DNA of 64,000 bases from a virus. Location of the stretch: positions 32,001-96,000 of the IMG/VR virus record IMGVR_UViG_3300002494_000025; one strand, given 5' to 3'. The notes beneath the pieces are model-generated. The model was not told where the DNA came from, did no database searches, and saw only the letters and a list, made by a program, of their open reading frames with translations. Positions 2,469 through 35,187 of this stretch are shown piece by piece. How positions within the stretch are numbered: position 1 is the first letter of the stretch; every line of letters starts with the position of its first letter. Both the position numbers and the translations under genes were made by a program.

Positions 2469-4196
2469 TTAATTTACAACAGACACTTCTATTGTAGAGA
2501 GATTGGTATCATAGTCTTTCTTAATTTGAACATTTACGTATTCAAATGGAATTTCCTGAATATTGTTGTTACTGATTATTACCTGATAGTCATATTGTTT
2601 TGCAAAGTCATAAAGTAATTGTAAAATTTTCAAAACATTTGAACCATCAACACCATTAAAGAAATCATCAAAAATTAATACTTTGAGTTCAGGTGCTGTT
2701 TTGAATATATTTAAGATTGTAAGAATTGTAAGAATAAAGATAATTGATACTTTCTTACGTTCACCATTTGATAATAGTTGATACGGTATGAACACACCAT
2801 CCCTGATAATACCGAACGAGATACTTTCATCATCGTATACAATTTCAAACTCTTCATTTTTATTCAACACATATGAACTATATGATTTAGCAATACTATT
2901 CATTTTACTGATATATTGTGATAAGAAATTTTTTCGTACTGGTGACTTGACATTTAGTAGTTCAATTATCAGATTTATATGTTTTAATTTTGTATCTAAT
3001 TCTTCAACAAGTTTGTTTTTCTCAGTGATTTGTTGTTCAATTTGTTTTATGTTTTCTTCGATTTGTTTAACTTGGTTATCATTTTGTTCGATTTGTTCAT
3101 TTATCATTTTCCATACATCTCTGGCACGGTTATGTAATTGTTTAAATTCTTGTATCTTGCTCAATTTCGTTTTCAACTCATTATACTGTTGTTCTATTTG
3201 TTTCCGTTGATTTGATGTTTTCAATAAGACTTCAATTTCGTCGTTTATTAATTGCGTATAAACATCAACATCACCTTTTGTGATTGGTCTATAACAAGTG
3301 GGACATTTTTGTAGTTCCTTTAAATGATTTAGTTCTTTTATCTTTTTTTCGTGAGTTTGTTCCGAAGTTTTCAATTCTAATAACTTTTTTTCCGTTTCAT
3401 TTATTTCATGTTTTATAGATGTTTCCATTGTTGTAACAAATTGTGTAATTTCATTACTTTTACCATTGAAATCTATCTCCAATTCAGGATTAAAGTACTT
3501 TTTTAATTCATTTAAATCGTTCATATACTTATTAAGTTCATTAACCTTTCTTTGGATTGTTTCAACTGAAAACTGTTGTTGAATATTTTTTAATAAACTC
3601 TCAAACTTATTTTTAGAAGATTTCAACGTTTCAATTTCAGACATTAATTTCGATTGTTGTGTCTGTAATGTTGATTGTTGATTTTTAATTTCCTTAATAT
3701 ACTCTTCCAAATCTTTATTATAAATGATTTTCTCAATAATTCTAAAAATTTGAACTGATGATAAGTCATATATTTGTTCTTTGTTCGGAATAAATACATG
3801 TGTAAGTGAATATATCTTATTAATATCTTTTATAATACTCTCTACAAAATAGTCAATTTTATCTTTTATTCTAATATTAAAAATATCTGGTTGAATTGTT
3901 ACATCAGATTTTCGACTATCAAATATTCTTGTTATAGTATACGTATGTGTATCATCTTTTTTAAATGTGACAGAAATCTTGGAATCACCTTCCGAACCAA
4001 TACGTTTCAAACTTTTAAACGATTTTATTATATTTAACGTTGACAATATACTATAGACAATTGAAGTTTTACCAGAACCGTTTGTAATGTTAGTATCATT
4101 ACTGTTTAATAACACGATGTTGTAATTATCAGGGATTTCAACACTAACATTATCATATACAGTAATATTCTCAAGTTCGATACGAGAAATTTTCAT
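2469..4196 (-). CDS. SbcC/Rad50/T4 gp46-like recombination ATPase
   Basis: Walker A NGSGKTS, coiled coil, CPTC zinc hook, LSNGE signature, IFDD Walker B. No internal TAG. Confidence 0.9.
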   Translation of the reverse strand: MKISRIELENITVYDNVSVEIPDNYNIVLLNSNDTNITNGSGKTSIVYSILSTLNIIKSFKSLKRIGSEGDSKISVTFKKDDTHTYTITRIFDSRKSDVTIQPDIFNIRIKDKIDYFVESIIKDINKIYSLTHVFIPNKEQIYDLSSVQIFRIIEKIIYNKDLEEYIKEIKNQQSTLQTQQSKLMSEIETLKSSKNKFESLLKNIQQQFSVETIQRKVNELNKYMNDLNELKKYFNPELEIDFNGKSNEITQFVTTMETSIKHEINETEKKLLELKTSEQTHEKKIKELNHLKELQKCPTCYRPITKGDVDVYTQLINDEIEVLLKTSNQRKQIEQQYNELKTKLSKIQEFKQLHNRARDVWKMINEQIEQNDNQVKQIEENIKQIEQQITEKNKLVEELDTKLKHINLIIELLNVKSPVRKNFLSQYISKMNSIAKSYSSYVLNKNEEFEIVYDDESISFGIIRDGVFIPYQLLSNGERKKVSIIFILTILTILNIFKTAPELKVLIFDDFFNGVDGSNVLKILQLLYDFAKQYDYQVIISNNNIQEIPFEYVNVQIKKDYDTNLSTIEVSVVN

Positions 4197-4239
4197 ATTT
4201 CAACCCCCTTTATACTTTATTTAACAAATACTATCCAAT

Positions 4240-4260
4240 AATAATATGTTGAAATTTACA
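4240..4260 (-). promoter_or_regulatory. Conserved motif TGYAAA-N5-AHATATTATT (candidate early/middle promoter); representative of about 12 copies
   Basis: Other copies at 9006, 15274, 17983, 25767, 28320, 30087, 47796, 48433 (minus) and 30903, 32320, 32901 (plus), each just upstream of a gene in the same orientation. Confidence 0.75.
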
Positions 4261-4292
4261 GTTTATTTTAAAATTTAAATGAGGTGACATAA

Positions 4293-4928
4293 ATGGAATA
4301 TAAAGATGGGTTTGTATTTATAGATGATAGTAATAAAGTTGTAAGAGACACACTATAGTTCGTAAAATAGTCGATGTTTAACTTATATTCATTACAAAAA
4401 GTACATCAATTTTATTTGAAATTTGAATCAAACGGTAAAATAACACAGGATTTTATAAATCTACTCAATGAACGATACCAATCAATTCAAAATTAGATAC
4501 CACAATGGAAGTTAGAAACAAATACTGTTACATATTCAGGAACTGAGTACCACATACCAACTGTCTTAACCATAGAAAATCCAACAGTCACAGTAACTTT
4601 TTTAGAAACAAAAAATTTTGACATTTATAAAACATAGAAAAAATATTTGATTGTTGATAGAAACATATCCAATACGGACAATTTACTCAACAATAAATAC
4701 ATCATACACAAACCGACAAATTACTTTACTAAATTGGATGTTACATTATTTAGTTAGAAATATAAACCAAATAATAATGATATATCCCCCTATCTTACAG
4801 TCACCTTCTACAATTTGTACATAAAAAATATTTCTATTGATACTCAACTCAATGTTAACAACACTGAATTAGTATATACAACAATAGAATTTGCATATAC
4901 TCAAGTATTCTTAACACCAAGAGATTAA
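4293..4928 (+). CDS. Tail-tube-fold (gp19/gp48/gp54-like) protein 1; TAG-recoded
   Basis: GAGGTG RBS, open through TAGs to TAA at 4926. IPQWKLET..TVTFLE..TFYNLY..TTIEFAYT pattern shared with the downstream paralogs. Confidence 0.6.
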
Positions 4929-4945
4929 CTATAGAGGTGACATGA

Positions 4946-5623
4946 ATGTAGTCAGAAAAGGATAATTTACTAAAATATGATGATATGATTCATAAACTAT
5001 AGGACGATGTATAGTTTTTTAATTCATTCAAAATTATGGTTAGGAAGGTTAATTTTGAGGAAAACCTAAATAATAACCTCAATACACTATTACAAAAAAT
5101 CATGAGTAATTAGGTTTTATCCGCAAATAAACCAAATTATGAACGTGAGACATACTATGTTAGTGATAACGATATTATCACACGTTTAAATTTCATATTC
5201 TTTTTCGTAAACAGTATCGAAGGTCTTCCATCACCTCATATAGAAACAGAAGAGTATAGTTTTATTGGTAGAAAGTATCAAATACCAAAACATCAAACAG
5301 TAGAACATGAGTTAAGATTTACATTTATTGAATTGGAAGGTTTATACATTTACCGTCTGTTTACAACATATTTGTTACAAATATTTGACTATTATAATGG
5401 TTATTTGAAACTTAATGATAGAACCCAATACACTTTTGATTTGTCAGTATATGGACAATATAAAGATACATTCTATGGTCAAGATGTGGACTAGTACTTT
5501 ACAATTAATTTCTACAACGTATTTCCAGTTAATGTAAACTTTGGAAACGAATTACAATTTAATAATACAAGTTATGTAACAACAACTGTAACATTCAGAT
5601 ATGATTATTATGAACAAATATAA
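4946..5623 (+). CDS. Tail-tube-fold protein 2; TAG-recoded (begins ATG TAG)
   Basis: SIEGLPSPHIETEEYSFIGRKYQIP..LRFTFIE..FYNVFPVNV..TVTFRYDYYE, typical of T4 gp19-like proteins. Stop TAA at 5621. Confidence 0.7.
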
Positions 5624-5655
5624 TAAATTGTCAATCTCAATGGGGGTGAATTTAA

Positions 5656-6369
5656 ATGGCACTATCAGACTTAACAAGATGGAAATTAACCACTGATAAA
5701 ACGTTATACGATTACACAGCATATCCAATTTTCCAAGTAATTGAGTTAGAAACAACCAACAATTTTATGAATTATGCAAAAAATGATACAATGTGGAAAA
5801 AGTTTCAAAATAATCAAAATAATCAAGATAATTCTTAGATCACTGATGACAGTAAATTGTTAGCCACACTACAAAATGTATTTGTACGTGCTACCGCTAT
5901 AACATTCCCAGGATTTACCTGTGAAGTAACGGAAATACCACAACAGTTTTCGAATATAAAAATATAGAACAAAGTTTCATTCACAAACGAAATAACATTC
6001 AATTTTGTGGAAGACGCAGAAAATAACATATTCAAATTCTTTAAATCGTGGTTAGATCAAATACTTCTAGTGGATTATCAAACACCTGTGTACGGTGCAC
6101 AATACAATATTGCAAATAACTACAAAGTAAATATCACATTCGGTATATATAAAATTAATAACACAATAATGAATACTGTAACAAAATCAACAGGTTATAA
6201 TGGAAAAGATGGTTTTGATAGTACCAACATAATATTCAAATTTAAACTTCACGGTTTCTTCCCCAAATCGATCAACAATCCAACATATGATTACACAACA
6301 TTTGAAATCGTAACACGTGATGTTGGGTTTACATTCGATTATATAGAACTATTAACACCATCACTATAA
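5656..6369 (+). CDS. Tail-tube-fold protein 3; TAG-recoded
   Basis: Joins the ORF-track pieces at 5656 and 6007 (same frame) across TAGs. ITFPG..ITFNFVED..LHGFFPKSI..FTFDY. Confidence 0.7.
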
Positions 6370-6391
6370 TAAGAAACAAGAGGTGATATAA

Positions 6392-7078
6392 ATGTTAATT
6401 AACAATTTATTACAAAGTACAAAAAGTACACCAAGTGTTTCAACAACTACATATTTTCTCGTAGACCTTACAAATTTTGTTAATATAATTGATAAGACTG
6501 GTAATTTAAAAAACACAATAAACAAATACGTTAAATCTGTTACACTCCCAGAAAGAAAAGTCGATACCACATCTATTGAGGGTTAGATGTTATCAGTACA
6601 ACATGCCCAACTTAAACAGACTTTTGATACGTTTCAAATCACATTCTTTGATGATAAAAACTTTACAATCAGAACAAATCTTCTAAAGTACATGTTAAAA
6701 TCAGTTTTCGATTATACCAATCTTGTCTACAAAAGTGCAAGTACCTACAAATGTGATATTACAGTTTACGTTATTAACAACTTCTTGGGCAGTGATGTAA
6801 CACATACAGTAACAATAAATAATAATAATGTAAATACCACTGATATATCAACAATTGAAAATATTATTAACAACACACCAACAAACACGTAGATAACCAC
6901 AGTACCAGTATATATCTATAGATTCTATGGTTAGTTCCCAACAGAAATACCAGAAATAACATTTTCCACAACTGATGAATTAGAACCAACAATTACCGTA
7001 ACATTTACATACGATTGGTACAAAATCGATACTACAAATACTGAAAAAATAAATTTGGCACAACTTAGTTTAATCTAA
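6392..7078 (+). CDS. Tail-tube-fold protein 4; TAG-recoded
   Basis: KSVTLPER..FQITFFDD..FYG*FPTEI..TVTFTYDWY. Stop TAA at 7076. Confidence 0.75.
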
Positions 7079-7095
7079 TTGAGGTGGTGATTTGA

Positions 7096-7857
7096 ATGGC
7101 AATCAGTATAATAAATAGTGTTAACACATACAATGTTAGTACATACGACGCATTTAACAAATAGAAACTGTTTAGTAGACTACCTGTTGCATATTCAAAT
7201 GATATATCGTTCATCTTACGTGGTGAAGTAGTAAATGAATCAAATAATAATACATTCACTTCAAAACTTAACAACTCGTTTACAAGTTCAATAATGATAC
7301 GACTCAAATCGATATCATTACCAACTATGTCATTGGAAACAACAGAAATCCCCCATCTGTCATTCAACGCTAAAATGTAGTCTAAACCCACACTTGGTGA
7401 TGAAATAACAGTTTCAATAGTTGAAGATGCAAATTCAAATGTGTTCCTCAACTTTAAAGATTTTATTGAAACTTATTATAATTGGGTAATTTAGGTTCCA
7501 AACAATCCCAACTATAGTATCAAATTCCATATTGAATAGTTCTTAACACCATTGATACCAACTACTGTAAACAATATAAATTATTCATATTTATCGACAG
7601 CAAACACAAGTAGAAATAATGTAGCTGCAATAACAACTGTAAGTAATAATACAAACAACTTTACTGGAACACTTGGTACACGTATATTCAAAATAACACT
7701 GTATAATCCAATTATAAAGAACTTGAATCATCAAACCATGGATTATTCAAGCACCGAACTGATCAATAGAGATATTACAATTGGGTTTGAGTACTTTGAG
7801 TTTATTACATATATGTATGATAATAACAATCAACTAGTAAATGCACCATTGTTCTAA
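7096..7857 (+). CDS. Tail-tube-fold protein 5; TAG-recoded
   Basis: GAGGTGG RBS, MAISIINS start, KSISLPTMSLETTEIP..ITVSIVED..ITIGFEYF. Same frame as ORF-track piece 7552. Confidence 0.7.
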
Positions 7858-7892
7858 ATTTAGAATCATTAACTAACAGGGTGGTGATATAA

Positions 7893-8609
7893 ATGTTGAT
7901 CAATAGTGTATATAGTGATCAAAATAACATTTCTTATACTGTTACAGATGTGTTTAGACCAAATGCGTTTATAGTTAGTTTTACAGAATTCAAAAGTGAT
8001 AGTAAATTGTTTGAACAACTAAATAGTTTTATTAACAAATACTTAAAAGTATGTAATATTATAGATGATGATAAAAATAATAAACCATTCACCGAAATAT
8101 CAAACAATTTTTTTGGTACTAACAATAACAGTAATACTACTACTACTATTACATTCCATCAAAACATGTTACCATTACTTGCAAAAAGTGTAACATTACC
8201 AGATATAAACATTGAAGTAAGTGCAATTGACTTGGGATTATGGAAAACACAAAGAATAGTAAATAGAAAAACATTTGATACTTTCACGATAACATTCCAA
8301 GAGTTACGTGGTTTACCAGTTAGGTTATATTTCTTAAAATGGATGTTTGCGTACATAATAAACCCGTGGAGAGGTTATCATGTATAGCCAGATCTATATA
8401 AATCAATCATCAACGTACAAGTATTAAAGAATATAGATAAATATGATCCACTTTATGTAGTCAAATTCTATGGTTAGTTCCCAACAAATTTGAATGAACT
8501 AATACTATCATATGAAAACAGTGACATTTTAAACACTGAAGTGACATTTGTATACGATTACTTTGATATTGAACAAACACAACCAAAACAAGAAGAACAA
8601 AAAAAATAA
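7893..8609 (+). CDS. Tail-tube-fold protein 6; TAG-recoded
   Basis: FRPNAF..KSVTLPD..FTITFQE..FYG*FPTNL..EVTFVYDYF. Stop TAA at 8607. Confidence 0.75.
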
Positions 8610-8681: not shown

Positions 8682-8954
8682 TTAGTTAGTGGGTATCACA
8701 ATACTTGGTTTTTGTTGTTGAATTTCTGTAATCCGACTTTTTACATATTCTTCCAACTCTTTATTGAGATCATCAACACTTACATTTAATAATTCTCCTA
8801 CTTTCTTTATCAAAAATTCAATCACAAGACTATCAATGTTTGACTTGTTCAGTAACATTAATACTAACTTTCTCAACTCTTCAATCATAAGTTTTGTTTC
8901 ATCAATATTACCAACATCAGAACCTCCACCAATTATCACACCCATATAAAACAC
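8682..8954 (-). CDS. Hypothetical protein (TAG-free)
   Basis: ORF with GGAGG near its start and the early motif at 9006-9026 upstream. Exact start codon uncertain. Confidence 0.55.
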   Translation of the reverse strand: MFYMGVIIGGGSDVGNIDETKLMIEELRKLVLMLLNKSNIDSLVIEFLIKKVGELLNVSVDDLNKELEEYVKSRITEIQQQKPSIVIPTN

Positions 8955-9039: not shown

Positions 9040-9046
9040 AAACTTA
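9040..9046 (+). promoter_or_regulatory. AAACTTA candidate late-promoter element (representative copy)
   Basis: Also intergenic upstream of genes at 18982, 35594, 42293, 54797, 59992 (plus) and 20511, 22737, 32284, 42273, 53657, 54760 (minus). The motif is short and AT-rich, so chance hits are common. Confidence 0.45.
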
Positions 9047-9084
9047 AAAATGTATTGTTACAAACAAAATGTGGGGTGACATAA

Positions 9085-10911
9085 ATGTCTACAATAGTTT
9101 TAAACGATTGGAATTTAGTAAGTAAAAATATACTATACGTGGTTAAATAGGTACAAAAATTTTTAAGTAAAAACTTTATGCTTCCTGAAAAGAAAGTTAT
9201 TCTTTCTGGTTACTAGGAGTTTTTTAGTAAATATTTTTTCACTCTTGACAAATATCGACAATTCCTGGAAAAAGTCAATCCACCATTCCTCATATATAAT
9301 ATGTCAGAATTTACAATTAATCGTGGTACATTGAACCATCAGTGGAATACTACTGGTTTTGAATAGGTCGACTTACAAAAATATACACTGTACATCCAAA
9401 AAACATTTGTCAGAATACCAATCAACATTACGTTATACACTGACAGTCGACCACAATTGTTATATTATGTGTCTTTGTTCTTGGCAACTTTTGATGTTCC
9501 ACAGTCAAAAATAGTCGTTCGGTACCCCATCGAAATACCTGATGATGAACCAATCAAAGAAGTAATTAATGAAGAAGTATTCACAGTTCTATCACCCGAT
9601 AACATTACAGACCAGAGTGAATATATATTCGATGACAATATGAGAACGTTCAAACTTACCACGTCATTCACTTTGGAAGGTTATATCTTAACACGTATTA
9701 GATACTATAACAAAATTACACAAGTTAATTTACAATTCTCAAACACATCACAAACCATCCCTGTATAGGAACAAACATTGTATAACGATATTTCACAAAA
9801 TGGTATTGTCATCTCTATTAATACGAACAATACCACAATCCCCCTATTAACTTCTGAAATCATACAACAAACTGACTTGACAAATCCAACAGTTGAAACC
9901 AATAGTATAGAAGTTACTATCACAGACCCAACAAATAATACATCAACTACAGTACCTATTATAAGTAGTAATGAAACTAATACAACAACCGTCGTCAATC
10001 AATCGATAACTGTTAATAAGGATACTATACCATTTACAACTGTAAATAATTCCATCATTACACCAATATTAGAAAACAGTACAAACACAATAAAGTCAAC
10101 AATATATACACATATCAAACAAACAATTTATGACTAGACAATAAATAATAAGATTAACTTACCACAGAATATTATTAATTTAATTAACAATAATGTAATC
10201 ACAATTGAAAATGTATAGACACAAATATAGGAACAAATTGGTAATCAGTTAACACAAACATTTTCAACCAATTTACAAACATCATTAACGGGAACCATAA
10301 CAACTCAATATAATAATGTAATCAGTACTGTATTAAATCAAATCTTGGGACCAAATAATACAATTCCCGTTCAACTTCAAATCACATATAACGAAGATAC
10401 TCAACAACTATCAGTATCAATATAGAATATTAATGATATTCAACAAACAATTAACAATATAGTTACGGGTACTACTGAAAATATATTCAATAACATTACA
10501 AACACAACAATAATTAATGACACTATATCCAATTCATTAACACAAACAATGACACAGTCACAATCAACTTTTACCGTCACCGTAATGAACCCGAATAATA
10601 ATACAATATTAGCTGATAATTCACAGATCACCATATCAAATGAAGTTACTCAAACGTTAAATAATGTACTTGTTAATCAAGTATCAGGTGTTTATTCTAA
10701 TACTATCATGAACAACTACAACAAATTCATTCAAGGAACACAACAATCATCAACACCAATTATTCCACTCTCAAAATTAGAAAACGTAAACCTCAACTAT
10801 AACATTAACGTTAACTATCGTATATCAGAAACAACAAGTATATACACAGTACCACAAACACCAGAAGATTACAATAATAACGAATGGGTTGTTATATCAT
10901 TAAAATTTTAA
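9085..10911 (+). CDS. Tail completion/terminator (T4 gp15-like) N-domain fused to a long Thr/Asn/Ile-rich extension; TAG-recoded
   Basis: GGGGTG RBS. ORF-track pieces 9457, 9778 and 10549 are in one frame joined by TAGs. PINITLYT..RTFKLTTSFTLEGYI resembles gp15 family proteins (from memory). Confidence 0.5.
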
Positions 10912-10926: not shown

Positions 10927-11406
10927 ATGAGTGGTAGGTACTCACGACAAAAGGGTTATAGAATAGAATATGAACTCACCAAACTTTTACAATCTTATCA
11001 CATTAACAATAAACGTGTACCATTGAGCGGTGGAAGTTGGTTAAAAGGTGATATTATCATTGAACACAATAACAGAACATATATATGTGAAGTAAAAGGT
11101 GGTAGTAACAAATTTAAAATAATATATGACAAATTTCTAACATATAGAGATACAACAAACAAGTCATGTGTCTATCTTGGTGATTATGTTCTGTGTGATA
11201 TCCCAACATTTGTAAAACTTCTAAATAACGAAACAAATATCATTAATAGTATTAGTGACATTTTGAACATAACCAAACTAAATATGATCAATGATTATAT
11301 CGATAAAAAAGATGTATTGTTCATCAAACGTGACAGAAAAGAATATCTGGTAATATTTAGAAAACAACTATTTAACTCATCAAGTGGGGGTGTTACAAAT
11401 GGATAA
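10927..11406 (+). CDS. Hjc-like Holliday junction resolvase (PD-(D/E)xK nuclease)
   Basis: KGYRIEYE, RVPLSG, GDII and EVK motifs. No TAG and no Ala. Confidence 0.75.
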   Translation: MSGRYSRQKGYRIEYELTKLLQSYHINNKRVPLSGGSWLKGDIIIEHNNRTYICEVKGGSNKFKIIYDKFLTYRDTTNKSCVYLGDYVLCDIPTFVKLLNNETNIINSISDILNITKLNMINDYIDKKDVLFIKRDRKEYLVIFRKQLFNSSSGGVTNG

Positions 11407-13361: not shown

Positions 13362-13362
13362 T

Positions 13363-27108: not shown

Positions 27109-27119
27109 CTTTAATACTT

Positions 27120-27899
27120 TTAATACCCTCTTTTTTGTCTATCAAAATTTTCGTGATTTTTCGTCATATAATGAATTATCAAATCTTCCAAACTTCTTTT
27201 TCCATCAAAATTAATAAACAACTCTGATAATATCTCATGTAATTCATTTGTAACTTTCAAAAACTCGGAATAATCAATATTATAATCCTGTTCTTTATAT
27301 GTTTTCCAATATTTCCATGGGAATAAATTTAAAAGTTTGGACAATTTAACAAATCCTTCAAACACTAGATCATTATATGTTGTAACGTTTTTGTATGGTG
27401 TGTCGAATGTAAAATTAAATGTTGACATCATATCGTTAACAACCTTTTCCACAATAACCTTTTGGTATGTTTTATCACTTACATAATTATCAATCTGATT
27501 ATTTAATTTATCGTTAATTATATTAACTATCAGTAACAATTGTAACAAGAAGTGATAAATATCAATTACTTCATAACGACATTCAACTTTGTACTCACTT
27601 AGTCTAACAATATGTTCGGCATTTGGAAGTTCATCAATCCAATTTTTAATTTCAACAAACTCATCAAACATTGCAAGTATTGTCTTTTCAGCCAGATCTT
27701 TGAATGTTAATCTAGATTGTTCCCAAGTTGGAAGTATTTTTCTTTTTATGATATCAATCATTAGAGAGTTCTGTAAATCAACCATATAGTACAAAATTGG
27801 TTTGTTAGATTGTTTTTTAAATTCCTCAATTTGTTGTTTCATTTGTGGATAGTATTGTATATGTATCTCAAACTGTGACTGTCGGTGTTGTCCCATCAT
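27120..27899 (-). CDS. Dimeric all-alpha dUTPase/dCTPase (T4 gp56-like)
   Basis: DEFVE, EVIDIYHF, PWKYWK and KNHENFDRQKRGY motifs. Confidence 0.8.
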   Translation of the reverse strand: MMGQHRQSQFEIHIQYYPQMKQQIEEFKKQSNKPILYYMVDLQNSLMIDIIKRKILPTWEQSRLTFKDLAEKTILAMFDEFVEIKNWIDELPNAEHIVRLSEYKVECRYEVIDIYHFLLQLLLIVNIINDKLNNQIDNYVSDKTYQKVIVEKVVNDMMSTFNFTFDTPYKNVTTYNDLVFEGFVKLSKLLNLFPWKYWKTYKEQDYNIDYSEFLKVTNELHEILSELFINFDGKRSLEDLIIHYMTKNHENFDRQKRGY

Positions 27900-27936
27900 T
27901 TATTACCCCCTTTTATCTTAATGACATTCTATTCTG

Positions 27937-28293
27937 TTATTGTCTCTTGACATTTACGATGATTCTGGTCATTGCTTTATCATCTGGATTGTACTCTGGT
28001 CGTTGTGTTGGATCAAATTTTACCAAGATACCCTCAGACTGTAATGGTTCAACGTACTCAATCAACTCAACGTTAAACAACTTCCACCCTTCGGAATTTC
28101 CTGAAGTACTATAACCACTTTGTTGAAATGCACGTAATAATGTGTTACCAAGTCGGTTTACACCCAATACATATGGTTCCACAATACGTTCCCGTGGTTC
28201 ACCACGATATTTCAGTTTTACTACAGTTCTTTTTCTAATACTTTTCACCAGTACATTAATAATCTCATTTACACTCATCACCATACTTATCAA
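27937..28293 (-). CDS. Stand-alone WYL domain protein
   Basis: YRGEPRERIVEPYVLG..LRAFQ..GWKLF..RPEYNPDD. Confidence 0.75.
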   Translation of the reverse strand: MISMVMSVNEIINVLVKSIRKRTVVKLKYRGEPRERIVEPYVLGVNRLGNTLLRAFQQSGYSTSGNSEGWKLFNVELIEYVEPLQSEGILVKFDPTQRPEYNPDDKAMTRIIVNVKRQ

Positions 28294-28343
28294 CCTCCTT
28301 CTTTTAACTTGTGTCTAATAATAATATATTGGATTTTGCAATT

Positions 28344-30053
28344 TTAACTGTCTAAACTCTCAAATAGTTGTTTGTTAAAATTTTCAATTTCATAAATCAT
28401 TAATTCATCAATATTTCTAAGTTCATGTTCATCGAATCTATCAATACCGAACAACATATCAAACACCTCGATTTTGGGATTGAGTATTTTGTTTAATACG
28501 TACTTATCAAATAACGATAATAAATTTATCACAATCCCGTCATTAACTTTCTTGTGACGTAGTCTATATATTCTTCCAACTCGTTGATTCATTTTAGCAG
28601 GATTGTATAGTTGGTCGTAATTAATCAGTACATCCAAATCAAGATTTACACCGGTTGATAACACATCTGTTGCAAGGATTATATACTGTTTTAAATTTTT
28701 TAATTGAGAACGATTGATTTGTTTTTTACTTGAAAACACAAATATGTTTTTATTTTTGAATATTTCATTCTTGGTAAGTAGTTCATACAGATGGTTAATG
28801 ACAGTTTCATAAAATGAGAAAATTATAACTTTTTTGTTACTGTATGATTGAAGAATGTCAAATATTTGTTTATCTTTGGGAGACATATAATTATCCCAGT
28901 CTACAGTTTTAACATACTTAGACAGTTCTGGTAGATATTTAGACTTATGTACAGTTTGTTTAATGATGACTGGATTATTTAATATCTCACGTAAATAGAT
29001 GAACCGTACAATGTTTTTAACAAGTGGGTGTGATATATTATTTGTTTCTTGTTTGAGGATTTGTATCATCTGTTTCTGAAGATTTTCCATACCAACATCA
29101 ACAGAAAAAGTATGAATATTTTGAAGGTATAATTTATCGATAACAACAACATCTGTTTTCCTCCTTCTTATATAAACTTTTGTTTGTTGTAATATAGATT
29201 TTAATTCATCCAAATTTTGATATTCGTACTTAGTGAACTTACCATTTTGAATTGGTGTTACATACCGTTCTATAAGTTTATTGGTCCAAATATCCATACC
29301 GTAAAACATAACTTGTAACAAATTAAAGAGTTCAATAACATGATTTTCAATTGGAGTGGCAGTGGATACAATAGTGAATGTCTCCGGTAAGAACTGGTTA
29401 ATAAACTTTATTACTTGTGTAACTTGGGTGTTGGAATTTTTTATTTTTTGTGCTTCATCTAATATTAACAATGTATATGAACTGTTATTTTTAATTTTGT
29501 TGAGGAAATCTACAATTAAACTAACCTGTAATTTGTCAGTTGTTCTAAACAAATCATAGTGTGTTACAATTAGATTAAATTTATTCAATTCATTTGTTGT
29601 ATAAAGTGATTTTTTATCAGTTAACAAAACAATGTTGAGGTACTTATGTAAATTATATTTTTTAATTTCTTCAAGAACATCAAATTTAACATTTTTAAGT
29701 GTAATATAGATTGTAGTAAATGGTTTGTTTATCGACTTGAAATAATCAGTTAACAATAATGTTGAAGACAGTGTTGACAGTGTCTTACCTAACCCAGTAT
29801 CGTCTGCCAATATAACGCCATGTTTTTTGAACAATATACCATTGAATATCTCATTTAAAAACTGTAAGAATTCAACTTGATGTTGTTGTAGTGTAATTTT
29901 GTACTTTGACTGTATCTTAATCTTATCAATATCAAGTCTTATGTTGGTGAACGTACTAATATATCTATTGTCACTTGGTGATATGTTATTTAAAAACAAG
30001 TATAAGTTGGTACTATATTCTTTTATGTGTTCAAACATAAATTCACCATCCAC
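28344..30053 (-). CDS. SNF2-family helicase/ATPase
   Basis: LADDTGLGKT, LDEAQKIKN, TATPIEN, GVNL and QRVGRIYR motifs. Confidence 0.9.
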   Translation of the reverse strand: MDGEFMFEHIKEYSTNLYLFLNNISPSDNRYISTFTNIRLDIDKIKIQSKYKITLQQHQVEFLQFLNEIFNGILFKKHGVILADDTGLGKTLSTLSSTLLLTDYFKSINKPFTTIYITLKNVKFDVLEEIKKYNLHKYLNIVLLTDKKSLYTTNELNKFNLIVTHYDLFRTTDKLQVSLIVDFLNKIKNNSSYTLLILDEAQKIKNSNTQVTQVIKFINQFLPETFTIVSTATPIENHVIELFNLLQVMFYGMDIWTNKLIERYVTPIQNGKFTKYEYQNLDELKSILQQTKVYIRRRKTDVVVIDKLYLQNIHTFSVDVGMENLQKQMIQILKQETNNISHPLVKNIVRFIYLREILNNPVIIKQTVHKSKYLPELSKYVKTVDWDNYMSPKDKQIFDILQSYSNKKVIIFSFYETVINHLYELLTKNEIFKNKNIFVFSSKKQINRSQLKNLKQYIILATDVLSTGVNLDLDVLINYDQLYNPAKMNQRVGRIYRLRHKKVNDGIVINLLSLFDKYVLNKILNPKIEVFDMLFGIDRFDEHELRNIDELMIYEIENFNKQLFESLDS

Positions 30054-30846: not shown

Positions 30847-30954
30847 ACAATCTATCAATGTTTACGTGTACTTAATTGTCAATCTTGTTATTGTATATAA
30901 AGTGTAAACTCGAATATATTATTAATAGGTACAAATGTATGGGGGTGATTATAA

Positions 30955-31353
30955 ATGGTTATGTATACAAAAGAAATAACATTACCTATTCCAAGTCCAA
31001 CACGTGATGACCAAGTTGAATATGTAGATGTAGATAATATAAAGTTAGAAACTATTTATAATTTCGAAACACACGAATATGTTGCAATAGTTTGTAAAAT
31101 AAGAAAAAACAATACACATGAGAAACATCGAATATTTTATTTCAAAGTACCATATGAACGTGAATACGGATTTGCAAATTTAAGAAAAATTTTTGAAAAC
31201 ACTCAACTGGATTATGATTACAGTACGTATATTTCCAATCAACACAACAACATTGATTTAATGAACACAATCATAAATTTGTTCGAAACAATACAGAATG
31301 AAATCCAACAATCACAATCATCATTTCAAAATAATAAAACCGATGTAATGTAA
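30955..31353 (+). CDS. Hypothetical protein
   Basis: GGGGGTG RBS and early motif at 30903. Confidence 0.65.
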   Translation: MVMYTKEITLPIPSPTRDDQVEYVDVDNIKLETIYNFETHEYVAIVCKIRKNNTHEKHRIFYFKVPYEREYGFANLRKIFENTQLDYDYSTYISNQHNNIDLMNTIINLFETIQNEIQQSQSSFQNNKTDVM

Positions 31354-31382
31354 ATGTAAAACTTGGGAGGTGGGTGTAAATT

Positions 31383-31910
31383 ATGAGAAATGAAAGTAAT
31401 TTTAATGTTGACAACATGGAGTTCCCAAAAGTTTTAGAACACATCGAATGGCGTTTGGGTTCGATGGTTAGAATCAGACCATCAAAAGAAAAGGTTTTGT
31501 TCAGTTTTATGTTGAGAGACAAGAACAACAAAGATTACGATACGAATAGTAGAGTATTGTTTTCTACAAACATGTCTGAAACATATCAGATTATCAAGTA
31601 TCTCGATACACTCCTAAATACAGATACAGTTACACCATACACCCTAATCCATGTTCCAGATGGTCCAGATGGTACTAAAAATAATTAGGGAATAAAAAAG
31701 ATATTTACAATCATACCTAAACGTGATGAGAAGATGAAGTTACAAACGGTGTATATTTCTTTAATTGTAAACAACAATGGACATGAGATAAAATATATTA
31801 TCAGTTTTACTGATACAGGTGTGTTACGATATTTTGGATTTAAATTAAAATTAATGTACTATTGGTTAACAACAAACACACTAGTTGGATTCACCGAAAA
31901 CTGGATATGA
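31383..31910 (+). CDS. Hypothetical protein; one internal TAG
   Basis: GGAGGTGG RBS. Reads through TAG at 31686 to TGA at 31908, followed by a terminator hairpin at 31924-31945. Confidence 0.6.
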
Positions 31911-32216: not shown

Positions 32217-32359
32217 TTAATTCACCTCTATCTATAGATAATGATTAAATGTTTTGAAACTTCACAGTTTTGTAAGTCATTATTAAGTTTGTTTTCTTTT
32301 TTTAGTTTTGTACTAAAATTGCAAGACTCAATATATTATTATTAGAACGTTGTGTTAAG

Positions 32360-32905
32360 ATGATTGGGGTGGATTGGATGAATGAAAAAACAAATTCAAC
32401 GTTTCAAATCTTATTTTCATTCCTAATGTTTACATCGTACATGTATTCGAACCTTTCAGAATTCATCAAACAACTTAACGAAGTAGTTTTTGAGGGATAC
32501 AAACATACAATCGTAACTAGTAACGATGGGTTGTATATAAAACGAAGTAAAAGTCAAGAACAGATAAAAGATATCATACGTGGTTACGAATATCTAAAGA
32601 GTGGGGGTAATTTACCAGACTCCAATATCGTAGTATTTAATTTAAAAGTAATTGATGTTAAACCAGTCTGTCTTTTTAAATGTAACTGGTTCAAAATTAA
32701 AAACTTGTACAGATACTACGTAAAACTAACAATTGTAGATCATGATTTTCAATTCATGAAGTCGGATGATTCCGTAATTAACTTTGTGATAAAACCGAAC
32801 ATCAGTTATATTTATAGTTACGTTAAACACATAATAAAAGAAACTGATTATGGATATCCGTTCTGGTTCAAACGTGAGGAATTTGAGAAAATTTCAAAAC
32901 TGTAA
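32360..32905 (+). CDS. Hypothetical protein
   Basis: ORF behind the early motif at 32320. Confidence 0.6.
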   Translation: MIGVDWMNEKTNSTFQILFSFLMFTSYMYSNLSEFIKQLNEVVFEGYKHTIVTSNDGLYIKRSKSQEQIKDIIRGYEYLKSGGNLPDSNIVVFNLKVIDVKPVCLFKCNWFKIKNLYRYYVKLTIVDHDFQFMKSDDSVINFVIKPNISYIYSYVKHIIKETDYGYPFWFKREEFEKISKL

Positions 32906-32926
32906 AACCCAATATATTATTAAGGT

Positions 32927-33970
32927 TTGATGTATGTAAAAATAAAAAGTATGGAGGTGGATGGTATGGGTATTTTCGATAGTTTAAATCAATTAAGGAT
33001 GGTGAGAAATATGGGTGAGAACAGTGGTAAGAAGACACGATACTATGACATTCTAAATGTTTATAACAATTCGATGATCCACATCGATAGAGATACTGGA
33101 GAAAAACAGATACTTGATAAAACGACTGTAGTTATATTCAACATTGACAAACCAATATATGTTACAAGAGTGATCACAACGTATCCACGTATTGTAACCC
33201 ATGAAATTATTGTAGACTCACTAACGGACGACGGTGGTTTTGAAAATTTGATGTCAAGAGATACGTTTAAGAAGTATTATAGTATCAAAAAGAGATATTT
33301 TAATACGATCCCCAAAGAAAATTGGAAAAAGTTTAATAAATCAGTAAGAACCGAATGGTATATGGTTATACCAGTTATCGTTGTAAAAAAAGGTGTTGAC
33401 AGACCCACATTAATGATTGTTAAGAATCAAAATATTATTAAAGCGTTTACTGGATTGGATTTGGATGAAACAAAATATAATTTGGCACTTGGGAAAAATT
33501 TCGATGGTGTCAAAGCAACACTTCTAATTACACTTGATATTAATGATCCACGTAACTTTTCATATACATATACCCCAAAATATAATGGATTTTTATCAAA
33601 TGTATATAACACAATCTCAACATCATATCCAATAGAATTGTACCAACAATCGTACGATGATTTTATCAGTTATGCAAAGAACAAGACACGTGAGAATAGA
33701 GATGAAATATTAGTTCAACTTGAGTACTATTTGAACGAAATAACAAATATGATGGAGTACGAAATCAAGAGATTCGAACAATCAAAATCAAAAGATGATA
33801 TTTTACAACAAACGGTAACCACAAACAGTAAAAAAGGACAAACTATGAAGATTGGTAATGTAAGTGAAGAAAGAAGAACACAATCTGATGATGAATTTGA
33901 TAAACTCCTTGAATCCTTAAACATTGATGTTTCAGATAATGAAAATGAAGATGATGAAATTCCGTTTTAA
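32927..33970 (+). CDS. Probable single-stranded DNA-binding protein (gp32-like position); start probably ATG at 32966
   Basis: Acidic C-terminus ending DDEIPF, directly upstream of the RecA/UvsX gene. Confidence 0.55.
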   Translation: MMYVKIKSMEVDGMGIFDSLNQLRMVRNMGENSGKKTRYYDILNVYNNSMIHIDRDTGEKQILDKTTVVIFNIDKPIYVTRVITTYPRIVTHEIIVDSLTDDGGFENLMSRDTFKKYYSIKKRYFNTIPKENWKKFNKSVRTEWYMVIPVIVVKKGVDRPTLMIVKNQNIIKAFTGLDLDETKYNLALGKNFDGVKATLLITLDINDPRNFSYTYTPKYNGFLSNVYNTISTSYPIELYQQSYDDFISYAKNKTRENRDEILVQLEYYLNEITNMMEYEIKRFEQSKSKDDILQQTVTTNSKKGQTMKIGNVSEERRTQSDDEFDKLLESLNIDVSDNENEDDEIPF

Positions 33971-33993
33971 TCATAAACAGGTATGGATGAGGG

Positions 33994-35187
33994 GTGGTGA
34001 TGATGGCAAGAAAAAAGAGTGAAGTTGAATTGAAAACCCATGAAAACTCTGGAATTTTAAAAATTTTTGAGGAAATAGCCAAAGAAACAAATGTGTCAGA
34101 GACTAATCTTATGGATGATATATTTGATACACCATTGACTGTGTTTAATGAACTCATTGGTGGTATTCCAAAGGGTAGGATTGTTAGTATTGCTTCCGAA
34201 CCAGGTGCAGGTAAAACTACACTACTAGTACAAACCATTTCACATCTACAAAAACACGAAACGTGTAATATTATCTACATAGACACAGAACAAAGTATGA
34301 GTAGGAGAAGATTCACAGAACTTGGACTCGATATTGATAAAATATTGTATGTTCAACCACAAACGTTGGAGGATACTTACACATTCATAATCAAAGTATT
34401 ACAACGAAAACAAGAACTTAATGACATGACACCTTTACTAATAGCATTTGACAGTGTCACTGCAACACCAACGAAAAAAGATATTCAACAATCCGACGAA
34501 ACTGATTTTCAACAACAAGTCGGGTACAGAGCAAGAATCAATTCTAAAGTAATACCGATCATACAAACGTATATATCAAAAACAAACACCACATTTTTGA
34601 TGATTAATCAACTGAGAAAAAATATTAATGTCGGATACAGTAGTTTCTTCACCCCACAAGATGAAATTGTTGGGGGATTGTCATTATTGTATTATTCTGC
34701 AATTGATCTTCGATTGTCGTCATCACTGTCAAATAAGAACAAACTACTAGAATCAAATGAAATAGATGGTAAACTTGTGTGGGCAAAGACAAAAAAGAAT
34801 CGTCTGATGACACCCATGATTGAATTTCCATTATTGTTGGATTACAAAAACGGATTTGACAATGATTTATCAAACCTTGCGTTTTTACTTGAGTTTGATG
34901 AGTACAGTAAAGATTATCTACAGACGGGGAGTTGGTATAGGATAAAAAATATCCTCACTGGTAAGGAGTATTCATTTAGGTTATCAGAGTATAAACAAAT
35001 GTGCACTGACAACCCTGAGTTTAGACAGACCGTTGATGATTTGGTGGTATACATATGTAGAAAAGAATTCAAGGGGTTGAAAGACGAGGTGATTGTTGAT
35101 GAACTTACCAACAGAAAACTTAAAGACACAAGAACAAGAATCAATAACGTAGTTGAAGAGGTTAGAACAGCAAATAATGAAAGTTGA
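33994..35187 (+). CDS. RecA/UvsX-like recombinase
   Basis: GGIPKGRIV, EPGAGKTT, YIDTE, FDSV, INQLR and KKNR motifs. Confidence 0.9.
   Translation: MVMMARKKSEVELKTHENSGILKIFEEIAKETNVSETNLMDDIFDTPLTVFNELIGGIPKGRIVSIASEPGAGKTTLLVQTISHLQKHETCNIIYIDTEQSMSRRRFTELGLDIDKILYVQPQTLEDTYTFIIKVLQRKQELNDMTPLLIAFDSVTATPTKKDIQQSDETDFQQQVGYRARINSKVIPIIQTYISKTNTTFLMINQLRKNINVGYSSFFTPQDEIVGGLSLLYYSAIDLRLSSSLSNKNKLLESNEIDGKLVWAKTKKNRLMTPMIEFPLLLDYKNGFDNDLSNLAFLLEFDEYSKDYLQTGSWYRIKNILTGKEYSFRLSEYKQMCTDNPEFRQTVDDLVVYICRKEFKGLKDEVIVDELTNRKLKDTRTRINNVVEEVRTANNES

Follow-up and report, generated by a model that had tools for sequence, protein, structure and literature searches.

The replication genes of the phage described here are free of TAG and hence readable by a normal host, while the endolysin, large terminase (TerL), protease, tail tube and sheath all need this codon. 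New here is that one promoter-like motif, P1, is shared by the TAG-free units and the suppressor tRNA. In the explanation that we favor and hold to be likely, the TAG-free genes stay readable in code 11 early in infection, and the TAG-bearing genes follow the build-up of the suppressor. The window, i.e., the whole stretch of 64,000 nucleotides that was analyzed, belongs to a phage of ~108 kb with 28% G+C and T4-type core genes from a hot-spring community.

Genome and reading of TAG

Under table 11, the window is chopped into short ORFs, and long ORFs return when TAG is read as sense. Greedy ORF cover, taken per 5 kb over the phage part of the record, rises from 0.47–0.97 (table 11) to 0.70–1.0 (TAG as sense). 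The ORF set was drawn from this phage part with TAG as sense and comprises 99 ORFs (three were dropped), which together hold 375 TAG and 417 GCN codons. The GpC step is avoided genome-wide (o/e 0.26), and GCN alanine codons are therefore rare throughout the genome, which would explain why the phage resorts to TAG for alanine. The T4-type core genes found are a gp23 capsid, a T4-type terminase, a prohead protease, a gp26-type hub, a sheath and a tube; among cultured phages, no capsid protein exceeds 29% identity to the one found here. The left 25 kb of the record is a different, standard-code phage and the right end is chimeric; the “provirus” label of the record looks like an assembly chimera.

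Alignments and tRNA features support a reading of TAG as Ala and not Gln. Among 111 distant homologues of TerL, Ala is the top residue at nine of the 22 TAG columns, and the residues pooled over these columns are 38.6% Ala against a background of 6.6%. For PhoH, the pooled TAG columns give 25% Ala (background 6.1%). The phage tRNA(CUA) bears G3.U70 and A73. This amber-suppressor tRNA of the phage’s own, with its alanine identity set, would read TAG as Ala, presumably after charging by the host AlaRS. The phage tmRNA adjoins the suppressor tRNA. As gene-calling tools assume table 15, database proteins of the clade show Q where Ala is meant, and Q in these proteins was taken as the code-15 rendering of TAG.

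TAG content along the window

The features below are given with their TAG counts; P1 and P2 are the two promoter-like motifs discussed further on.

2469..4196, minus strand: SbcC-like gene, 575 aa, 0 TAG, stop TAA (phrog_77, E = 3.9e-24)
4242..4260, minus strand: P1 core upstream of the SbcC-like gene (motif match)
4293..8609, plus strand: six tandem tail-tube paralogues, 211–253 aa, with 5, 5, 2, 3, 4 and 2 TAG (phrog_45 ‘tail tube’ for four of six)
8682..8954, minus strand: small TAG-free ORF, with P1 cores 9008–9026 and 9297–9315 ahead (ORF and motif scan)
9041..10911, plus strand: P2 motif (9041–9052), then a 608-aa ORF (9085–10911) with 8 TAG (ORF and motif scan)
10927..11406, plus strand: RusA-like/PDDEXK resolvase, 0 TAG (PF24608, E = 2.9e-5; phrog_244)
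11384..11992, plus strand: phrog_1128-like 202-aa ORF, 7 TAG
12668..17948, minus strand: TAG-free unit of three small ORFs, SbcD (Metallophos) and a family-B DNA polymerase (Pfam; PolB E = 5.5e-44)
17985..18003, minus strand: P1 core upstream of PolB (motif match)
18063..19930: two TAG-free ORFs, 18063–18965 (minus strand) and 19112–19930 (plus strand), with no family match in Pfam or PHROGs
19974..20354, minus strand: 126-aa ORF, 4 TAG
20635..21672, plus strand: PhoH-like ATPase, 10 TAG, non-structural yet recoded (PF02562, E = 8.2e-29)
21744..28284, minus strand: TAG-free unit of five ORFs of unknown function, a C5 DNA methylase, a DnaN-type clamp, a dUTPase_2/NTP-PPase and a WYL-like ORF (Pfam)
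28322..28340, minus strand: P1 core heading the preceding unit (motif match)
28344..30053, minus strand: SNF2-family helicase, 0 TAG (PF00176, E = 4.7e-19)
30903..31910, plus strand: P1 core (30903–30921), TAG-free ORF 30955–31353 and ORF 31383–31910
32320..35187, plus strand: TAG-free unit of a 181-aa ORF, a 347-aa ORF and a RecA/UvsX-like recombinase, with P1 cores 32320–32338 and 32901–32919 (PF00154, E = 6.9e-29)
35595..37685, plus strand: P2 motif (35595–35606), TAG-free gp26-type baseplate hub (35917–36723), two small ORFs with 3 and 2 TAG, and a TAG-free acidic ORF (37194–37685) (PF12322, E = 9.8e-22)
37738..38373, minus strand: prohead core protease, 5 TAG (PF03420, E = 1.8e-10)
38397..41400, minus strand: two large ORFs without family match, 12 and 8 TAG
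46754..47816, minus strand: P1 core (47798–47816) heading a 329-aa ORF with 5 TAG
47962..48453, minus strand: TAG-free 150-aa ORF with P1 core 48435–48453
48466..50577, minus strand: cytidylyltransferase-like gene, 703 aa, 23 TAG (phrog_395, E = 2.5e-12; PF01467)
50615..52237, minus strand: TerL, 22 TAG, nine of them at columns with Ala in standard-code homologues
55340..64000, plus strand: three large ORFs without assigned function, with 14, 8 and 19 TAG (19 for the part within the window), and P2 motif 59993–60004

The TAG-free ORFs in 2469–35187 all end in TAA or TGA, and two TAG-free runs on the minus strand span 12668–18965 and 21744–30053. The methylase ORF and ORF 27937–28341 each have a single in-frame TAG, placed in a 5′ extension ahead of the likely start; a weaker P1 copy is found upstream of the methylase start, at about 25761–25793. 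The one TAG of ORF 31383–31910, which sits in an otherwise TAG-free unit, is codon 102; 73 open codons come after it, and the ORF may end at this TAG under code 11. The true start of PhoH may lie upstream, since its relatives measure 440–460 aa and carry an N-terminal PIN domain.

The original prediction had replication genes without in-frame TAG or TAG stop, and this is what we find for SbcC/D, PolB, the methylase, DnaN, dUTPase, helicase and RecA; the labels SSB and HSP20 have no support in Pfam or PHROGs (the 347-aa ORF ends in DDEIPF and is SSB-like by eye only). Its counterpart, a dependence of morphogenesis genes on TAG, applies to TerL, the prohead protease and the tail tube, but not to the gp23 capsid gene (0 TAG), and the ‘baseplate’ label at 38397–41400 is without Pfam or PHROGs match. 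Of the exceptions named as TAG-free, the gp26-like gene, the ORF starting at 37194 and ORF 19112–19930 all have 0 TAG, the SLT label again lacking support in either database.

Non-random partition of TAG

With Ala content controlled, the TAG split departs strongly from randomness. No TAG is present in 16 of the 54 ORFs with at least four Ala-equivalent codons, against 1.04 expected, and none of 20,000 permutations reaches 16 (heterogeneity across ORFs: χ2 = 249.8, df 53, p = 2.6e-27). TAG-free genes are also clustered (32 runs versus 50.1 expected, P = 0.00015), in blocks on both strands that are interleaved with TAG-rich genes. As predicted, TAG is distributed by functional class: of the annotated DNA-metabolism genes, 12 are TAG-free and two carry TAG, compared to two and 10 for structural and lysis genes (Fisher p = 0.0011; 0.0033 without NrdDG). 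These classes comprise 26 annotated genes, because 40 of 49 window proteins have no PHROG family at 1e-8. PhoH and the cytidylyltransferase-like gene are non-structural yet TAG-rich.

GCN density is alike in P1 units and elsewhere (11.5 versus 12.6 per 1000 codons), and TAG adds 15.9 per 1000 codons only outside P1 units; P1-unit proteins consequently hold 1.2% Ala-equivalents versus 2.8% elsewhere. PolB has 1.9% Ala compared to 4.0% in 114 distant homologues, and the DnaN-type clamp (422 aa) has zero GCN codons. In most other genes (packaging, tail, lysis and many of unknown function), more than half of the alanines come from TAG.

A very improbable explanation of this partition is a mosaic origin, in which the phage took up its TAG-free genes from standard-code genomes so recently that they have yet to gain TAG. 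It would suit nrdG and nrdD, which are TAG-free, ~80% identical to Fervidobacterium DNA and GCN-rich (33 in NrdD) with a GpC o/e of up to 0.9, and also the major capsid gene (gp23 type), which lies beyond the window and in which both G+C (35.6%) and GpC o/e (0.68) are higher. P1-unit genes, however, share the low G+C (26–34%) and GpC avoidance (o/e 0–0.5) of the rest of the phage and are alanine-starved instead of normal in composition. Moreover, relatives with as little as 40% identity also have a PolB without TAG, and interleaved blocks on both strands do not fit recent import.

P1 and P2 motifs

The P1 core, TGYAA-N6-AYATATTA, came to light through the duplicated sequence ahead of the two tRNAs and not through TAG status. 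Strong P1 sites number 14 in the record versus 0 in each of 20 shuffles, the core matches the window 10 times (0.09 expected), and 99 kb of Fervidobacterium loci contain no match. From these motif scans, P1 and P2 may be considered promoter-like, P1 being phage-specific. P1 heads the suppressor tRNA and a tRNA-Ala as well as TAG-free units, and the ~30 ORFs of P1 units take in almost every gene annotated for replication, recombination or nucleotide metabolism. Units headed by P1 contain 27 TAG-free and three TAG-bearing ORFs (0.9 TAG per 1000 codons). Those headed by P2 contain 10 and 21 (13.9 per 1000), an association that is biased because P2 was found by inspecting the upstream regions of TAG-rich genes. 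The split between P1 and P2 units gives a Fisher p of 4.3e-6, with ORFs sharing a unit not being independent; 38 of the 99 ORFs were assigned to neither motif.

In T4, early and middle promoters drive replication genes and tRNAs, and late promoters drive morphogenesis. Likewise, the two motif classes part replication genes and tRNAs from tail and packaging genes, although the P1 and P2 sequences differ from the T4 motifs. No gp55, gp33 or MotA homologues were identified in the phage. Among first genes behind P1, the 329-aa ORF alone clearly carries TAG. Its likeness to sigma-factor region 2 is weak and sub-threshold: there is no PF04542 match in the record at E ≤ 1, the hhalign probability is 0.7%, and a PDB profile search returned no sigma factor.

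In the favored explanation, P1 would be early and P2 late. Genes whose translation falls to the still unmodified host machinery when infection begins would have to stay readable in code 11, and genes translated after the suppressor tRNA accumulates would be free to use TAG. Since the suppressor tRNA shares P1 with the TAG-free genes, any switch would consist of tRNA build-up plus late transcription rather than late tRNA expression. The only RNA run covers both gene classes; it is made of contigs and cannot rank expression.

Alternatively, and with a rather low probability in our view, TAG may act as an active timer or safety lock that holds back the translation of late genes, lysis genes and regulatory genes until the suppressor has become plentiful, so that the code switch itself times development. 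Excerpts of Borges et al. (10.1101/2021.08.26.457843) propose such a role for lysis genes, and here six TAGs in the endolysin and 22 in TerL would fit. In a variant, the P1-driven 329-aa ORF with its five TAGs would be a late regulator: its TAG columns are kept as Q in relatives (one column in 3/3), and two of its distant homologues give sub-threshold Sigma70_r2 matches (E = 0.0021, 18.2 bits, cut-off 24; E = 0.094). Against a timer, the first TAG lies no nearer the 5′ end than chance (0.138 versus 0.166, P = 0.125), with no sign of deliberate stop placement, and ~16 TAG per 1000 codons over nearly all non-P1 genes looks like GpC-avoidance codon usage and not like a few regulatory stops.

Somewhat less probable still is that expression level matters and not timing, i.e., that suppression is inefficient against host RF1 and that TAG is avoided wherever a gene product is required in the largest or most dependable amounts. 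The record yielded no release factor gene, which makes RF1 competition plausible. The major capsid gene, which shares a P2 unit with TAG-rich tail genes yet has 26 GCN and 0 TAG, would agree with this, as would Cpn10, the gp26-type hub and the acidic scaffold-like ORF, all TAG-free though inside P2 units. Yet abundant virion proteins carry TAG (nine in the sheath, 2–5 in the tail-tube paralogues), while the low-copy SbcCD, resolvase and methylase are all TAG-free, and the P1 motif (27 versus 3) tracks the partition far better than any plausible abundance ranking.

Relatives and host

The partition recurs in relatives down to 40% identity. Q occurs in one of 65 cells at the conserved-Ala columns of five PolB relatives (40–87% identity), compared to 110 of 234 cells for nine TerL relatives. 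The host is probably Fervidobacterium, a standard-code genus of Thermotogota. The phage tmRNA shares 82% identity with its F. islandicum counterpart, the phage tRNA-Ala is 91–95% identical to Fervidobacterium copies, and nrdGD shows the ~80% identity noted above. The phage TerL was found in none of five Fervidobacterium genomes, and the CRISPR repeat of the sample had no match at ≤2 mismatches in 24 family genomes. RF1 is present in four of four Fervidobacterium genomes and TAG terminates 13 of 61 long ORFs of this genus, in line with the standard-code host of the original prediction, although we only infer the host’s identity.

This indirect host assignment, the chimeric right end and the foreign left 25 kb of the record would allow for there being no switch at all, either because Ala is the host’s own reading of TAG or because the record mixes two genomes with different codes. 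We regard this as the least probable explanation. TAG-free and TAG-rich ORFs are interleaved with a common composition within 26–130 kb, DNA word depth is even across the phage part (about 320–450×), and Fervidobacterium, the likely host genus, possesses RF1 and uses TAG as a stop. If the host read TAG as Ala, moreover, there would be no cause for alanine-starved replication genes to avoid this codon.

Comparison with known recoded phages

The sources in this section are cited from excerpts. The early-standard, late-recoded layout has already been published by Borges et al. (10.1101/2021.08.26.457843), who describe gut phages with standard-code replication machinery and recoded structural and lysis genes, and model a passage from early standard to late recoded translation. 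Common to those phages and ours are in-frame stops in a subset of genes, a suppressor tRNA of the phage’s own and a predicted standard-code host. For phages whose code differs from that of the host, the excerpts of that work name TAG to Gln and TGA to Trp as the sole reassignments seen, whereas TAG appears to be Ala here. Other differences from the phages in those excerpts are the hot spring and probable Thermotogota host instead of the animal gut, standard-code genes that are alanine-starved with GCN avoided genome-wide, and a promoter-like motif shared by the suppressor tRNA, next to which the tmRNA lies, and the standard-code genes.

Mgcod models phage genomes with two-code blocks (preprint 10.1101/2022.06.29.495998), and such genomes likewise combine blocks readable by code 11 with blocks needing a reassigned amber codon. 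Tools of this type assume table 15, as do pyrodigal-gv pipelines with TAG = Gln (PMC11210395), while the phage here appears to read TAG as Ala. For crAss-like phages, genetic code 15 was validated by metaproteomics (PMC9523058). There too, TAG is sense in the phage and a stop in the host, but alanine is indicated here by alignment columns and tRNA identity elements, that is, from sequence alone. As far as these excerpts go, the phage would represent a TAG-as-alanine case of the replication-standard, structure-recoded layout that is known with glutamine in gut phages.

Distribution of TAG over the Genes

Reading TAG as a sense codon raises the ORF cover per 5 kb from 0.47–0.97 to 0.70–1.0. With TAA and TGA as the sole stops, and after three ORFs were dropped (a tandem-repeat ORF, an ORF antisense to the tRNA and tmRNA genes, and a low-complexity ORF) and three 5′ extensions were trimmed where a later start was supported, the final set comprises 99 ORFs with 31,611 codons, 375 TAG and 417 GCN. 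These ORFs end in TAA (n = 70) or TGA (n = 29), and every TAG-free ORF inside window 2469..35187 has one of these two ends. The original prediction held that replication genes are TAG-free and morphogenesis genes depend on TAG, a view at odds with a TAG distribution that is random once alanine content is controlled. The distribution proved to be non-random under that control. Counting GCN and TAG codons together as Ala-equivalents, 16 of the 54 ORFs with at least four of them have zero TAG (1.04 expected), random relabelling over 20,000 rounds reached at most six such ORFs, and TAG is heterogeneous across the 54 (chi2 = 249.8, df 53, p = 2.6e-27). TAG-free ORFs are moreover grouped together on the genome (32 runs, 50.1 expected, P = 0.00015), and TAG-free blocks are carried by both strands.

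A PHROGs search at 1e-8 assigned no family to 40 of the 49 window proteins, and the functional comparison covers 26 annotated genes. Within the DNA-metabolism class, 12 of 14 genes are TAG-free (SbcC, SbcD, resolvase, PolB, MTase, DnaN, NTP-PPase/dUTPase_2, SNF2 helicase, RecA, thymidylate kinase, NrdG and NrdD), the exceptions being PhoH (10 TAG) and a cytidylyltransferase-like gene (23 TAG). Conversely, 10 of the 12 structural and lysis genes are TAG-bearing, namely TerL (22 TAG), the protease (5), four tube paralogues (5, 2, 3 and 2), the sheath (9), the endolysin (6) and two fibre genes with a CBM module; the gp23 capsid and the gp26-type hub are TAG-free. The two classes differ in whether their genes carry TAG (Fisher, p = 0.0011), also without the recently imported nrdGD (p = 0.0033). 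The predicted contrast between replication genes readable in code 11 and recoded structural and lysis genes is thus borne out, with two exceptions on either side. The labels SSB, HSP20, SLT and ‘baseplate’ given to some genes in that prediction find no support in Pfam or PHROGs.

Several of these genes have further peculiarities. The gp23-type capsid gene (record 110,866–112,305, numbered on the whole database entry) has 26 GCN and 0 TAG, 35.6% G+C and a GpC observed/expected ratio of 0.68, and lies between TAG-rich neighbours. Window 4293–8609 (+) contains six tandem tail-tube-like paralogues, an unusual number for a myovirus; four of the six match phrog_45. In its relatives, PhoH is 440–460 aa long and carries a PIN domain (PF13638) at the N-terminus; at 345 aa, the present ORF may be truncated at its 5′ end (upstream 20354–20635).

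Amino Acid Inserted at TAG

Three consecutive RNA genes at record 118,483–119,172 (L004:8483–9172) encode a tRNA-Ala(UGC), a tRNA(CUA) and a full-length tmRNA (204 bits). The second of these is the suppressor:

Record 118731–118806: suppressor tRNA(CUA), detected by ARAGORN and scoring 67 bits against the Rfam tRNA model

Its acceptor stem carries G1-C72, G2-C71, G3.U70 and A73, as in the adjoining tRNA-Ala, and G3.U70 is common to both tRNAs and the tmRNA, the latter with the tag ANEYIPLAA. G3.U70 is the identity element of alanyl-tRNA synthetase (AlaRS), and the anticodon is ignored by this enzyme. The protein alignments agree. Among 111 distant homologues of TerL, Ala is the commonest residue at nine of the 22 TAG columns (in 101–107 of the 111 at six of them) and makes up 38.6% of the pooled TAG columns versus a background of 6.6%. 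For PhoH (103 homologues), Ala is commonest at two of the 10 TAG columns (97 and 69 of 103), with 25% pooled versus 6.1%; one PhoH TAG is the first Walker A position, where the homologues have Gly in 103 of 103. Genetic code 15, in which TAG means Gln, was rejected, since none of the 22 TerL and 10 PhoH TAG columns has Gln as its commonest residue and the tRNA has G3.U70 and A73. TAG is therefore read as alanine through the phage tRNA.

Taken as a whole, the suppressor most resembles the host tRNA-Gly(UCC) and tRNA-Trp(CCA) (78–79%), from which it follows that an origin by duplication of the tRNA-Ala cannot be concluded, despite the duplicate upstream regions of the two genes. Neither an AlaRS nor a release factor gene was found in the record. 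Ribosomes that run past TAG stops in host genes might be rescued by the adjoining tmRNA.

Promoter-like Motifs and Alanine Content

The core of the duplicated regions upstream of tRNA-Ala(UGC) and tRNA(CUA) was turned into a weight matrix and scanned over the record, which defines the predicted promoter-like motif P1. Fourteen strong sites occur in the record versus none in each of 20 shuffles, in addition to one weak site before the MTase start. The core TGYAA-N6-AYATATTA matches 10 times in the window (0.09 expected) and is absent from 99 kb of Fervidobacterium loci. Leaving the two tRNAs aside, 12 genes come first behind P1: 11 are TAG-free, and one, a 329-aa ORF, has five TAG. A second predicted promoter-like motif, P2 (AACTTAHHWATG), occurs 16 times in the phage (1.76 expected), eight of them in the window (0.84 expected). 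Twelve P2 sites lie 26–128 nt before a start, and nine of these 12 first genes are TAG-bearing. P1 was found blind to TAG status, P2 by a search upstream of genes rich in TAG. With each same-strand run treated as a unit and assigned to the motif at its head, P1 and P2 units differ markedly in TAG status (Fisher, p = 4.3e-6, the ORFs within a unit being non-independent).

TAG status of ORFs by heading motif
Heading motif; TAG-free ORFs; TAG-bearing ORFs; TAG per 1000 codons
P1; 27; 3; 0.9
P2; 10; 21; 13.9
Neither; 8; 30; 16.8

GCN codons are used to a similar extent in P1 units (11.5 per 1000 codons) and elsewhere (12.6), and TAG adds 15.9 per 1000 codons only outside the P1 units. As a result, the TAG-free proteins contain 1.2% alanine-equivalents versus 2.8% in the rest. 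The DnaN-type clamp (window 25840–27108 (-), 422 residues) has zero alanine codons, and PolB contains 1.9% Ala versus 4.0% in 114 distant homologues. TAG-free genes are hence under equal pressure against GCN and have not taken the escape that TAG offers, which we regard as the strongest internal sign of constraint.

Some individual loci deserve mention. Several other P1-unit ORFs are likewise without alanine codons. The P1-unit ORF at window 31383–31910 (+) contains a lone TAG at codon 102 with 73 open codons after it; its product could be short while the suppressor is absent and long once it is there. At record 119,266–120,460, two paralogous ORFs, each behind P2, share one TAG position (codons 36 and 34). 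Window 30151–30576 (-), which separates the helicase gene from the next P1 unit, is a low-complexity, repeat-like stretch; instead of a gene, it may represent an origin or a regulatory region.

Partition in Related Phages

A PolB-based search for related loci in viral contigs gave no relative, and a TerL-based search gave only terminases of 25–34% identity. The partition in relatives was judged from database proteins as a proxy. Nine TerL relatives (36–88% identity) have Q in 110 of the 234 cells at conserved-Ala columns and are composed of 7.4–10.5% Q and 0–1.8% A, the pattern that code-15 translation of TAG yields. In five PolB relatives (40–87% identity), Q occupies 1 of 65 such cells, with 2.2–3.4% Q and 0.9–2.7% A overall. 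As the TerL relatives are Q-rich and the PolB relatives are not, the partition is a trait of the clade. The PolB and TerL relatives at 87% identity are both listed with 82,483 bases as the longest contig. Q at conserved alanine columns, the code-15 translation of TAG, is seen in the public proteins P0002–P0010 and P0122–P0138 of this clade. Some TerL relatives contain 0% Ala, and GCN may be fully replaced there.

Composition of the Record and Host

The record comprises 135,374 bases, of which 32,001–96,000 form the window, is classed as a provirus in the collection and has a CheckV completeness of 76%. Its composition divides it into three parts:

Record 1 to ~24,800: 42–44% G+C, GpC observed/expected 1.34
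Record ~24,800 to 130,400: 27–31% G+C, GpC observed/expected 0.26, the recoded phage
Last 5 kb of the record: 33–42% G+C, the right end with nrdG, nrdD and mutS

The left part is a separate siphovirus-like phage of the Fervidobacterium type, with 42% G+C and the standard code, in which TAG serves as a gene end. Its genes encode YqaJ, a terminase, an SPP1-type portal, an SU10-type capsid, a tube protein, a 2,447-aa tape measure and a CBM_4_9 tail fibre; the capsid protein has a 73% identical counterpart in a Fervidobacterium MAG and was found in three of the 24 genomes of that family. The left join falls within diverged copies of a tail-fibre module (75–85% identity, exact matches up to 43 nt) and coincides with a fall in GpC observed/expected from 0.87 to 0.32. 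CBM-like modules of this kind, 75–85% identical, are common to both phages (record 24420–24905, 25083–25574 and 129518–129980).

At the right end, MutS is 84–85% identical to Fervidobacterium proteins, and the DNA is ~80% identical to and syntenic with Fervidobacterium over 4,954 bases. Contigs of the hot-spring DNA run X1 were placed on record 117,001–135,374, which gave a word depth of ~320–450x through nrdD and 22x over mutS; the phage copy of nrdG and nrdD lies on ~330x contigs and mutS on a 22x contig. The ~330x contig has 27 differences from the record, all within the final 300 bases before the contig end, and beyond that point the record agrees base for base with a 13,738-base contig of depth 22. 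Since the former diverges where the latter takes over, the record crosses from the phage nrdD copy into host nrdD and mutS. Most simply, the right end (130,396–135,374; L005:13396–18374) is an assembly chimera between homologous genes, formed inside nrdD. An integrated prophage would be expected to show an integrase, attachment repeats and host flanks at host depth. The record has no match to the integrase family PF00589, and no direct repeats of more than 13 nt join the two ends of the low-GC DNA, at record ~24.4–25.2 kb and ~132.3–132.9 kb. It is thus probably not a prophage, and the label ‘provirus’ is doubtful.

The phage proper hence measures ~108 kb. It carries the gene set of a T4-type (gp23-fold) myovirus:

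gp23-type capsid: PF07068, E 9.4e-50
T4-type large terminase: relatives bear PF03237
Prohead protease: PF03420
gp26-type hub: PF12322
Sheath: phrog_23
Tail tube: phrog_45

An endolysin is also annotated. No cultured phage has a capsid protein more than 29% identical to the one encoded here.

Sequence similarity of the tmRNA, tRNA, nrdGD and tail-fibre module points to Fervidobacterium as the putative host. The phage tmRNA is 82% (F. islandicum), 79% and 76% identical to those of three Fervidobacterium genomes, the tRNA-Ala 91–95% to the Fervidobacterium copies, nrdGD ~80%, and the fibre module 75–85% to that of a Fervidobacterium-type phage. RF1 scores above the curated cut-off in four of four Fervidobacterium genomes, TAG ends 13 of 61 long ORFs, and the code-11 cover is 0.89–1.0. 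The phage TerL was found in none of five Fervidobacterium genomes. PolB homologues P0250–P0255, 33–35% identical, are annotated in Marinitoga genomes, a further link to the Thermotogota.

In contigs of X1 and of the RNA run X2, which comes from the same sample, stretches matching the phage adjoin a 30-nt CRISPR-like repeat (L005 ~4807–4842, 8245–8281, 10543–10579 and 12677–12709), so that some organism in the sample holds and transcribes spacers against the recoded phage. At two mismatches or fewer, the repeat occurs in none of the 24 family genomes. It was rejected as host evidence, its only counterpart being a two-copy remnant with three mismatches in one Fervidobacterium MAG.

Proposed Timing and Mechanism

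The sharp split between TAG-free and TAG-using genes is conserved and is aligned with both the two motif classes and gene function. The X2 contigs, assembled from one metatranscriptome run, cover all 30 bins of record 117,001–135,374 and both gene classes, at contig depths of 0.2–120 that provide no ranking of genes. Run X3 (0.06 share of words, pieces mostly 90–95% alike) was left out.

At the start of infection, the P1 units would be read by the host machinery together with the suppressor, the tRNA-Ala and perhaps the tmRNA. With growing amounts of the suppressor, presumably charged by the host AlaRS (no phage AlaRS was found), the remaining genes would become translatable. Competition with RF1 would persist, given that no phage release factor was found, and may account for TAG avoidance in the capsid and a few other genes of P2 units. 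Under this scheme, early genes simply cannot rely on a tRNA that is still absent. We favour such a passive constraint over an active lock, because two thirds of the ORFs use TAG as an ordinary codon and the first in-frame TAG is no nearer to the 5′ end than by chance (0.138 versus 0.166, P = 0.125).

For an active timer, the P1-driven ORF with five TAG (together with its P1 core at window 46754..47816 (-)) is the surviving, weak lead. Its protein has no match in Pfam or PHROGs and six matches in a representative protein search, and two homologues showed sub-threshold Sigma70_r2 matches. A profile search against the PDB gave no sigma factor, PF04542 has no match in the record at E <= 1, and hhalign against eight Fervidobacterium sigma factors gave a probability of 0.7%. 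A sigma-factor identity is thus no more than a weak lead, the likeness to region 2 staying below every threshold.

We consider it unlikely that all elements combine into a lineage of phages of thermophilic Thermotogota in which TAG serves as an alanine codon free of GpC and development is clocked by the code change itself. A single phage-specific promoter class, P1, would then drive the TAG-free replication genes along with the Ala-type suppressor tRNA. It would also switch on a regulator that carries five conserved TAG and, owing to them, is made only after the suppressor has built up. This regulator would open the P2 class for the TAG-rich morphogenesis and lysis genes, and the tmRNA would clear ribosomes reading through the roughly one fifth of host genes that end in TAG. 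The passive constraint remains our preferred reading.

Relation to Known Recoded Phages

The layout and the model have been published before. Borges et al. (10.1101/2021.08.26.457843) describe phages in which replication genes keep the standard code and structural and lysis genes are recoded, with suppressor tRNAs and a switch from early to late; in phages with a code unlike that of their host, they saw only TAG to Gln and TGA to Trp. The Mgcod preprint (10.1101/2022.06.29.495998) describes genomes split into blocks of two codes. Compared with the layout of Borges et al., the architecture here is the same, but TAG encodes Ala and the phage is that of a thermophile. Full-text literature searches gave no natural TAG-to-Ala phage code; bioRxiv preprint supplements might list other reassignments. 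What is new is the other amino acid, the habitat, the alanine-starved early set and the motif that ties the suppressor to the standard-code genes.

Avoidance of GpC (observed/expected 0.26 in the recoded phage versus 1.34 in the adjoining left-part phage) entails avoidance of GCN codons, which is the visible reason for recoding here. As current pipelines render TAG as Gln, the proteins of at least nine TerL and 17 PhoH clusters are wrong at many positions. The alanine-starved replication proteins, such as a 422-aa clamp without alanine, form a natural experiment in which a phage uses neither GCN nor TAG. The motif common to the suppressor tRNA and the TAG-free genes provides a concrete and testable set of two motifs, one tRNA and one tmRNA. 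Recurring here with a different amino acid and in the phage of a thermophile, the early-standard, late-recoded layout is not bound to TAG = Gln or to gut phages.
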